Assembly (NCBI RefSeq): GCF_003334315.1
Contig: NZ_QOWR01000002.1
Source: Escherichia coli
GTDB lineage: Bacteria; Pseudomonadota; Gammaproteobacteria; Enterobacterales; Enterobacteriaceae
Length of the DNA stretch: 64,000 nucleotides
Reading direction: 5' to 3' (one strand)
Shown here: positions 54,831 through 57,148 of the stretch, piece after piece
Layout of the letters: each line of letters begins with the position of its first letter
How positions within the stretch are numbered: the first letter of the stretch is position 1
Notes under the pieces: generated by a model
What the model was told of the DNA's origin: nothing
Databases searched by the model: none
Seen by the model: only the letters and a program-made list of their open reading frames with translations
Translations under genes and position numbers: made by a program

Positions 54831-55460
54831 ATGATTTTATTCGCCGACTATAACACCCCTTATCTTTTCGCTATTTCCTTTGTACTGTTGATCGGCCTGT
54901 TAGAAATTTTTGCGCTTATCTGCGGTCACATGCTCTCCGGTGCTCTTGATGCACATCTTGACCATTATGATTCCATAACCACAGGTCATATTAGCCAGGC
55001 ACTTCTTTATCTCAATATTGGAAGATTGCCAGCTCTCGTCGTTCTCTGCTTACTGGCTGGTTTTTTTGGTCTTATTGGCATCCTGTTGCAGCATGCCTGC
55101 ATCATGGTCTGGCAATCACCACTGTCGAACCTGTTCGTGGTTCCTGTCAGTTTACTGTTTACGATTATTGCGGTGCATTATACCGGTAAAATAGTTGCGC
55201 CCTGGATTCCACGCGACCATAGTTCAGCTATTACAGAAGAAGAATATATTGGTAGCATGGCGTTAATTACCGGTCATCAAGCCACTTCAGGTAATCCCTG
55301 CGAAGGAAAACTCACCGATCAATTTGGCCAAATACATTATTTACTACTGGAGCCTGAAGAAGGAAAAATTTTCACTAAAGGAGACAAAGTGTTAATTATT
55401 TGCCGACTTTCTGCAACGCGATATTTGGCGGAAAACAATCCCTGGCCCCAAATATTGTAA
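54831..55460 (+). CDS. yqiJ: NfeD-like inner membrane protein YqiJ (DUF1449)
   Basis: 209-aa ORF with N-terminal TM helices and C-terminal OB-like soluble domain. Confidence 0.85.
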
Positions 55461-55486
55461 TTTATTAATCAAAAGGAAATTTAATA

Positions 55487-57148
55487 ATGGATGATATTGT
55501 TAATTCTGTGCCCTCCTGGATGTTTACCGCGATTATTGCCGTATGCATTCTGTTTATTATTGGAATTATTTTCGCCAGGCTCTATCGTCGCGCTTCGGCA
55601 GAGCAAGCTTTTGTTCGTACTGGTTTAGGTGGGCAAAAAGTGGTAATGAGCGGTGGCGCAATCGTGATGCCGATCTTTCATGAAATAATCCCCATCAATA
55701 TGAATACTCTGAAGCTGGAAGTCAGCCGCTCAACCATTGATAGCCTGATTACGAAAGATCGTATGCGCGTCGATGTAGTAGTCGCTTTCTTTGTGCGGGT
55801 AAAACCTTCAGTAGAAGGGATTGCCACCGCTGCCCAGACGCTGGGGCAACGCACCCTGTCGCCTGAAGACTTACGTATGTTGGTTGAAGATAAATTTGTC
55901 GATGCCCTCCGTGCAACAGCTGCGCAAATGACCATGCATGAGTTACAGGATACCCGCGAGAACTTCGTGCAGGGGGTGCAAAATACAGTGGCAGAAGACC
56001 TGTCGAAAAACGGTCTGGAACTGGAGAGCGTTTCACTTACCAACTTTAACCAGACCTCGAAAGAACATTTCAATCCGAACAATGCCTTTGACGCCGAAGG
56101 TTTAACCAAACTGACTCAGGAAACAGAGCGCCGTCGCCGCGAACGTAACGAAGTTGAACAGGATGTAGAAGTTGCGGTGCGTGAAAAAAATCGCGATGCG
56201 CTATCGCGCAAGCTGGAGATTGAACAGCAAGAAGCGTTTATGACGCTTGAGCAGGAGCAGCAGGTTAAAACCCGTACTGCCGAACAGAATGCACGTATTG
56301 CGGCTTTTGAAGCTGAACGTCGTCGTGAAGCAGAGCAGACACGAATTCTGGCTGAACGACAGATTCAGGAAACAGAAATCGACCGCGAACAGGCCGTCCG
56401 CTCAAGAAAGGTTGAAGCTGAACGTGAAGTTCGCATTAAAGAGATCGAACAGCAGCAGGTCACCGAAATCGCTAACCAGACGAAATCGATCGCTATTGCC
56501 GCCAAATCGGAACAACAGTCCCAGGCAGAAGCGCGTGCTAATCTCGCACTTGCAGAAGCGGTAAGCGCCCAACAAAACGTAGAAACCACTCGCCAGACTG
56601 CCGAAGCCGATCGTGCTAAACAAGTTGCCCTAATCGCTGCCGCGCAGGATGCAGAAACCAAAGCGGTTGAACTGACCGTGCGGGCGAAAGCAGAAAAAGA
56701 AGCCGCAGAGATGCAGGCGGCGGCTATCGTTGAGTTAGCCGAAGCTACACGTAAAAAGGGTCTGGCGGAAGCAGAAGCACAACGTGCGCTGAACGATGCT
56801 ATCAACGTACTTTCTGATGAACAAACCAGCCTTAAATTCAAACTGGCCTTGTTGCAGGCGCTGCCTGCGGTAATAGAGAAATCCGTTGAGCCGATGAAGT
56901 CAATCGACGGTATCAAGATTATTCAGGTCGATGGTCTGAATCGTGGCGGCGCTGCGGGTGATGCGAGTACAGGTAGCGTTAGTGGAGGAAACCTTGCAGA
57001 GCAGGCATTGTCTGCCGCCCTTTCTTACCGCACACAGGCACCGCTGATTGACTCCTTGCTCAATGAAATTGGTGTTTCAGGCGGCTCACTGACGGCATTG
57101 ACTTCACCCTTAACCTCAACAACTCCCGTCGCCGAAAACGTAGAATAA
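55487..57148 (+). CDS. yqiK: Flotillin-like SPFH/Band-7 domain protein YqiK
   Basis: 553-aa ORF with N-terminal TM anchor, SPFH domain and long Ala/Glu-rich coiled-coil. Confidence 0.9.
   Translation: MDDIVNSVPSWMFTAIIAVCILFIIGIIFARLYRRASAEQAFVRTGLGGQKVVMSGGAIVMPIFHEIIPINMNTLKLEVSRSTIDSLITKDRMRVDVVVAFFVRVKPSVEGIATAAQTLGQRTLSPEDLRMLVEDKFVDALRATAAQMTMHELQDTRENFVQGVQNTVAEDLSKNGLELESVSLTNFNQTSKEHFNPNNAFDAEGLTKLTQETERRRRERNEVEQDVEVAVREKNRDALSRKLEIEQQEAFMTLEQEQQVKTRTAEQNARIAAFEAERRREAEQTRILAERQIQETEIDREQAVRSRKVEAEREVRIKEIEQQQVTEIANQTKSIAIAAKSEQQSQAEARANLALAEAVSAQQNVETTRQTAEADRAKQVALIAAAQDAETKAVELTVRAKAEKEAAEMQAAAIVELAEATRKKGLAEAEAQRALNDAINVLSDEQTSLKFKLALLQALPAVIEKSVEPMKSIDGIKIIQVDGLNRGGAAGDASTGSVSGGNLAEQALSAALSYRTQAPLIDSLLNEIGVSGGSLTALTSPLTSTTPVAENVE

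Follow-up and report, generated by a model that had tools for sequence, protein, structure and literature searches.

Work on bacterial flotillins has treated them as proteins that organise membrane microdomains and that, in Staphylococcus aureus, hold unfolded proteins independently of ATP. What kind of protein pair does the yqiJ–yqiK locus of Escherichia coli encode, in what sense does YqiJ belong with the NfeD proteins, and what might the pair do for the cell? These questions are addressed here for positions 54,831 to 57,148 of a 64,000-nucleotide stretch of DNA (the window) from RefSeq assembly GCF_003334315.1, contig NZ_QOWR01000002.1. The identification of both genes and of their families is a near certainty. 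It is also likely that the full reading holds, in which the locus is an operon that pairs a flotillin-type SPFH scaffold, YqiK, with a membrane partner of the NfeD2 class, YqiJ, and in which the two proteins would act by the mechanism set out below.

The pair was described in 2009 as an NfeD2/SPFH2 operon, together with nuclear magnetic resonance data on the C-terminus of YqiJ (PMC2636767), and was named as such again in 2023. Since both genes are, in addition, annotated in RefSeq, the pair is already known and published and the analysis brings no new biology. What it clarifies is that the label ‘NfeD-like’ for YqiJ rests on fold and gene context and not on a match to the Pfam NfeD family; this structural use of the NfeD label, the faster divergence of YqiJ and the raised synonymous divergence of the locus within E. 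coli are minor points to carry forward.

A two-gene operon with a flotillin-family protein

The yqiJ coding sequence occupies 54831..55460 on the + strand (ATG start, 209 amino acids plus stop) and encodes the small membrane partner, annotated in RefSeq as ‘OB-fold-containing protein’; yqiK follows at 55487..57148, also on the + strand (ATG start, 553 amino acids plus stop), and encodes the flotillin-family SPFH protein, annotated as ‘flotillin family protein’. Both open reading frames (ORFs) are intact. A first-pass annotation made from the sequence alone had placed the genes adjacent, co-oriented and 26 bp apart, with which the ORF listing and the + strand spacer itself (55461..55486, 26 nucleotides (nt), TTTATTAATCAAAAGGAAATTTAATA) agree. 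The spacer holds the ribosome-binding site of yqiK, a Shine-Dalgarno-like AAGGAAA about 9 nt 5′ of its ATG, and a GGAG lies 7 nt 5′ of the yqiJ ATG. A consensus scan of the + strand found no terminator-like site within either gene or in the spacer, and a terminator-like hairpin with a T-run (57165..57199, + strand; hairpin 57165-57189) lies 17 nt past the yqiK stop codon, with a stem of 9 bp that includes six G-C pairs and is followed by TTTTTATATC. The arrangement is bicistronic, and yqiJ and yqiK form an operon.

Upstream, 68-87 nt before the yqiJ start, lies a perfect palindrome, CTGTGTTA-TTAT-TAACACAG (8+4+8, 54744-54763). It was considered as a conserved operator and rejected: K-12 has it too, but CFT073 and O157:H7 carry mutations in each of its arms, so that it is probably not one.

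The family assignment of YqiK rests on several features of the protein. It has one strongly hydrophobic stretch, residues 4-36, ahead of the SPFH domain, and the membrane anchor lies within it (55496..55594, + strand; Kyte-Doolittle values of up to 2.98 in a 19-residue window). Arginines R31, R34 and R35 stand at the end of this stretch, and because they follow the anchor the bulk of YqiK is expected to be cytoplasmic, an orientation that has also been predicted in the literature (2023). The SPFH/Band 7 domain covers residues 39-192 (55601..56062, + strand; Pfam Band_7, PF01145, E 2.1e-18), and a Flot domain covers residues 406-530 (56702..57076, + strand; Pfam Flot, PF15975, E 1.8e-40, model positions 1-124 of 124). 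Between them lies an Ala/Glu/Gln/Arg-rich, presumably helical and proline-free region, residues ~205-450 (56099..56836, + strand). The N-terminal anchor and the SPFH/Band-7 domain had both been read correctly at first pass, as had the composition of the ~250-residue Ala/Glu/Gln-rich region: over residues 200-450, alanine contributes 19.1%, glutamate 17.1% and glutamine 10.8% (47% in total), with no proline and two glycines. Of the residues of the helical region, 37% are charged, and it contains 25 EA/AE dipeptides.

A profile of the YqiK family, built from six homologues and run against all PDB sequences, matched flotillins only, namely human flotillin-1 (9bq2 and 9l3g; E 3e-6, SPFH domain) and flotillin-2 (1win; E 0.06), and no stomatin, prohibitin or HflK/C structure; the single YqiK sequence gave no match in the PDB with phmmer. 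The gene names and the flotillin/SPFH assignment are thus borne out by RefSeq annotation, by the Pfam Band_7 and Flot domains and by these profile matches. Against the best NCBIfam model, the FloT equivalog NF058507, YqiK scores 87.4 bits with a cut-off of 700, and because of this shortfall it is a flotillin-family relative and not a FloT equivalog. A defence-system reading of the locus was ruled out, as the PADLOC defence models gave no match for YqiJ or YqiK.

The sense in which YqiJ is NfeD-like

YqiJ consists of an N-terminal membrane domain, YqiJ_N (residues 8-115, 54852..55175, + strand; PF21001, E 1.4e-14), with three predicted transmembrane helices, and an OB-fold β-barrel, YqiJ_OB (residues 139-198, 55245..55424, + strand; PF07290, E 2.7e-14), which is NfeD-like by fold. 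These two are its only significant Pfam matches. Hydrophobic stretches at residues 8-39, 56-94 and 96-119 correspond to the helices at 6-30, 68-94 and 100-125 of an AlphaFold2 model, which was computed from a 123-sequence alignment and reached an overall predicted local distance difference test score (pLDDT) of 92, compared with merely 70 in an earlier run with 17 close homologues. Both domains (PF21001 plus PF07290, formerly DUF1449) are present in all 123 aligned relatives. The family is large: a profile run against 1.84 billion representative proteins gathered 1534 clusters at 50% identity (E<=0.001), and the AFDB50 matches of the family are spread over alpha-, beta-, gamma- and delta-proteobacteria.

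The first-pass annotation had called YqiJ NfeD-like and had proposed a search with the Pfam Band_7 and NfeD profiles as a check. The Band_7 half of that check came out positive on YqiK, but the NfeD half did not: Pfam NfeD (PF01957) has no match on YqiJ at E<=10, and among 123 diverse YqiJ relatives none matches at E<=0.001 and one at E 0.05. Sequence and profile searches with YqiJ retrieved no NfeD structure from the PDB, only spurious matches to ABC-transporter transmembrane regions (E ~1), and alignment of the YqiJ profile with the single sequence of YbbJ, an NfeD-family protein of E. coli, gave an hhalign probability of 0.8%, which is not significant.

The predicted structure gives a different answer. 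The best PDB matches of the predicted C-terminal β-barrel of YqiJ are NfeD C-terminal domains, with Foldseek in agreement; the predicted barrel is five-stranded, of OB type and matched by solved NfeD domains, and the transmembrane helices lie N-terminal to it, as expected of an NfeD protein in the structural sense. Generic OB folds, ribosomal protein S17 among them, reach a score of ~7.1 against the YqiJ barrel. One could argue from the silent sequence profiles that YqiJ is no NfeD homologue at all, being an independent OB-fold membrane protein that sits beside flotillin genes and has arrived at the NfeD shape by convergence, although we regard this as distinctly unlikely. The label ‘NfeD-like’ is retained because the predicted barrel best matches NfeD C-terminal domains and because adjacency to a flotillin gene is conserved, and it is supported at the level of fold, architecture and gene context, not of sequence family. 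In other words, the earlier label stands by predicted fold and neighbourhood and fails by sequence profile. A protease-regulating role of the ‘long NfeD’ kind was ruled out for YqiJ, which has no protease domain in Pfam.

Conservation, neighbourhoods and proposed role

That NfeD and SPFH genes form a conserved two-gene module had also been claimed at first pass, and a sample of contigs (labelled by L numbers) that encode ten distant relatives of YqiJ, with 25-41% identity to the E. coli protein, bears this out. In all nine informative independent loci a Band_7 plus Flot gene, or a fragment of one on short contigs, lies directly downstream of the yqiJ homologue on the same strand; the tenth, L012, is uninformative on this point as its contig ends 300 nt past the yqiJ homologue. 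The downstream flotillin genes are 45-79% identical to YqiK by tblastn, and the spacers measure 13-118 nt. In L007 (4722-6456), from a marine metagenome, gene calling splits the flotillin gene into two ORFs (88 and 492 amino acids) that together span YqiK residues 12-545, reflecting either a frameshift (real or a sequencing error) or a split gene.

The two partners diverge at unequal rates. YqiJ evolves far faster than YqiK in all ten pairs drawn from L002, L004, L008, L009 and the window, with pairwise identities of 27-41% against 44-82%; in L004 (65% G+C), YqiK is 78% identical to the E. coli protein and YqiJ merely 35%.

Within E. coli the stretch is part of the core chromosome. Megablast matched it in 5425 of 5426 complete genomes, at a coverage of at least 80% in 5390 of them; identity is at least 90% in all records except two, 985 genome records are merely 90-95% identical over yqiJK, and the matches lie on the chromosome with yqiJ and yqiK annotated. 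Presence in 5390 of the 5426 genomes, together with the domain E-values, shows that the layout is not a product of chance. JM109 is 98.7% identical over both genes, so the window strain is not K-12.

Substitution patterns point the same way. In comparisons with CFT073, O157:H7 and K-12, the ratio of non-synonymous to synonymous divergence (dN/dS) falls at 0.035-0.145 in yqiK and at 0.11-0.15 in yqiJ. Both genes are thus under purifying selection and are maintained despite insertion sequences (IS1, IS30 and IS903B) and small truncations in the stretch of individual strains. Those insertions could instead be taken as signs that the E. coli locus is a cryptic or decaying remnant with no current function, as could the very low native expression, the deletions without a phenotype, the many truncated YqiJ protein clusters and a natural yqiJ frameshift in Salmonella that was without a phenotype when survival in egg white was assayed. 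Retention at 80% coverage or more across nearly all complete genomes and dN/dS values of 0.04-0.15, with an SPFH domain in which dN is 0 although dS reaches 0.51 between the window strain and CFT073, make decay most improbable. The clear purifying selection exists despite the lack of laboratory phenotypes, and yqiJ and yqiK therefore probably matter under conditions outside those assayed so far.

As a separate observation, comparison of the window strain with CFT073 gives a dS of 0.29 in glgS and 0.30 in yqiK, and of 0.06, 0.12 and 0.11 in the adjoining hldE, glnE and ygiF respectively. The raised values of glgS-yqiK could come from low codon bias, itself due to low expression, or from imported alleles.

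How the two proteins might work together can be sketched from homologous systems. According to the mechanism that we consider moderately probable, which draws on solved SPFH assemblies and on work on the B. subtilis and S. aureus counterparts, the N-terminal helix of YqiK would hold it to the membrane while most of the protein lies in the cytoplasm. Through its long helical region and the Flot domain, YqiK would oligomerise at the cytoplasmic side of the inner membrane into a ring or dome that encloses a small membrane patch. YqiJ would hold its three helices in the membrane and bind YqiK through its cytoplasmic OB barrel; by this binding it would be recruited into the assembly, which it may also stabilise. 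The proposal is modelled on the behaviour of four systems. Eukaryotic flotillins build membrane-attached domes, according to published work; foci of B. subtilis NfeD2 need FloT, and NfeD2 moves with FloT; S. aureus NfeD binds the flotillin FloA and stabilises the flotillin oligomer; and the Pyrococcus 1510-C barrel has been proposed as the scaffold of stomatin assemblies. Physical binding to the SPFH partner has been reported for both the B. subtilis NfeD2/FloT and the S. aureus NfeD/FloA pairs. For E. coli YqiK itself, plasmid-borne expression gave punctate foci (2023 study).

Several points weigh against this reading, beginning with the missing sequence link between YqiJ and the Pfam NfeD family described above. 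YqiJ–YqiK binding and formation of a YqiK cage are proposals carried over from homologous systems, and in one of these, B. subtilis, loss of NfeD2 left FloT assemblies unchanged and gave no phenotype, so that a stabilising role of NfeD2-type partners is not general. At native level YqiK was undetectable with a green fluorescent protein fusion and marginal in membranes, and it was not found in detergent-resistant fractions. Neither a ΔyqiK strain nor a quadruple SPFH mutant had a growth or biofilm defect (2023 study), and deletion or overexpression of yqiJK had no effect in the single assay of a 2026 study. The 3.5-residue hydrophobic periodicity expected of a coiled coil was not detected in YqiK residues 205-450 (z -1.0 to 0.3) by a crude Fourier test, which is weak over long segments with possible phase shifts; the coiled coil that the first-pass annotation had named there is thus a prediction that the composition alone does not establish. 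Finally, a simple scan of the + strand upstream of yqiJ found no sigma-70-like promoter.

The first-pass remark that the physiological role in E. coli is poorly defined accords with the literature, in which expression is low and deletion has no phenotype; up-regulation of yqiJK on NarQ overexpression has been reported (2026 study). A pointer to function comes from the distant relatives. In four of the ten independent loci a pspA gene (PspA_IM30, PF04012) stands directly upstream of the yqiJ homologue: in L004 (799-1500), L006 (150-845), L009 (3287-3964) and L010 (1254-1931), which are near-identical copies and count as one locus, and L012 (3352-3930). Published neighbourhoods of PspA, YqiJ/YuaF and Band-7/flotillin genes agree with the sampled loci. 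The surroundings in L012 also include a NinG-like phage gene and numerous small ORFs that have no annotation.

Because pspA frequently adjoins yqiJ homologues in other bacteria, membrane-stress handling may be regarded as the most plausible role of the YqiJK module in E. coli. A stronger version takes YqiJ–YqiK to be the core of a PspA-type membrane-stress or repair module that acts with PspA encoded elsewhere, and not a generic ‘raft’ organiser. The adjacent pspA genes in the sampled loci and the like neighbourhoods in the literature speak for it; yet E. coli yqiJ has no pspA next to it, its neighbours being glgS and the ibs/sib repeats, neither osmotic nor alkaline shock induced yqiK according to unpublished data that PMC2636767 cites, and no stress phenotype has been reported for ΔyqiK. 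We regard this version as tentative, possible rather than probable; it extends the explanation by a flotillin-type scaffold and its NfeD2-class partner rather than competing with it. More speculative still, and doubtful, is the idea that YqiJK is a dedicated membrane-damage module cooperating with PspA encoded elsewhere, in which the fast-evolving three-helix domain of YqiJ would sense or mark a damaged patch inside the flotillin ring. If true, it would supply the long-missing yqiK phenotype.

Upstream of the operon for the flotillin-type scaffold and its partner come the ygiL-yqiGHI fimbrial operon and glgS; downstream of it are the ibs/sib repeats and hldE. Straight after yqiK, two tandem repeat units of ~375 bp (57166-57896) are 90-92% identical, and each has two elements: on the - strand a SIB_RNA (RF00113) antitoxin, matched at 57372-57521 (148 bits) and 57747-57896 (142 bits), and on the + strand a type I toxin annotated as Ibs. 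The hairpin that follows yqiK is the first element of this repeat unit, with a second copy at 57541-57565; CFT073 has one ibs copy only at the corresponding site. The chaperone-usher fimbrial operon ygiL-yqiGHI of the window strain (49373-54319) is located between ubiK and glgS, while in CFT073 (L017, 142-5116) a fimbrial operon lies on the other side, across ribB-ubiK, and ubiK is followed immediately by glgS. In the window strain, a block of low G+C content (36-44%) with flanks of 51-56% is made up of the fimbrial operon, glgS and yqiJ.

Comparison with known systems

Among systems of this general kind, the Pyrococcus horikoshii pair PH1510/PH1511 combines a long NfeD, which contains a protease domain, with a stomatin. 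The N-terminal serine-protease domain of PH1510 cleaves stomatin, unlike anything in YqiJ, which at 209 amino acids has no protease domain.

Eukaryotic flotillin-1 and flotillin-2, which form a 44-subunit dome (9bq2, 9l3g), have the Flot C-terminal domain family in common with YqiK, and theirs are the only solved structures that the YqiK family profile retrieved, over the SPFH domain. They assemble as hetero-oligomers, and eukaryotes have no described NfeD homologue. Their mode of attachment differs, in that eukaryotic flotillins are held at the membrane by a hairpin and acylation and not by a transmembrane helix.

The B. subtilis yuaF-yuaG operon, which encodes NfeD2 and the flotillin FloT, represents the class called SPFH2/NfeD2 in Hinderhofer et al. 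2009. With 87 bits on the FloT model, YqiK counts as a relative of that protein and not as its equivalog, and structural alignments put YqiJ and YuaF at only ~10-12% identity. Foci of the B. subtilis proteins are easy to see, whereas YqiK at its native level in E. coli can hardly be detected.

The same E. coli genome offers a second comparison in qmcA-ybbJ, likewise an operon of an SPFH protein and a small partner with transmembrane and OB-fold parts, in this case a stomatin-like SPFH1 protein and a member of the NfeD family. QmcA is not known to carry a Flot domain, and BLASTP found no significant similarity between YqiK and QmcA. YbbJ is annotated as NfeD family, whereas YqiJ has no Pfam NfeD match. 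QmcA is, like YqiK, predicted to face the cytoplasm, and in JM109 (L019, 8851-10223) the SPFH gene comes first and the two genes overlap by 4 bp, the reverse of the yqiJ-yqiK order.
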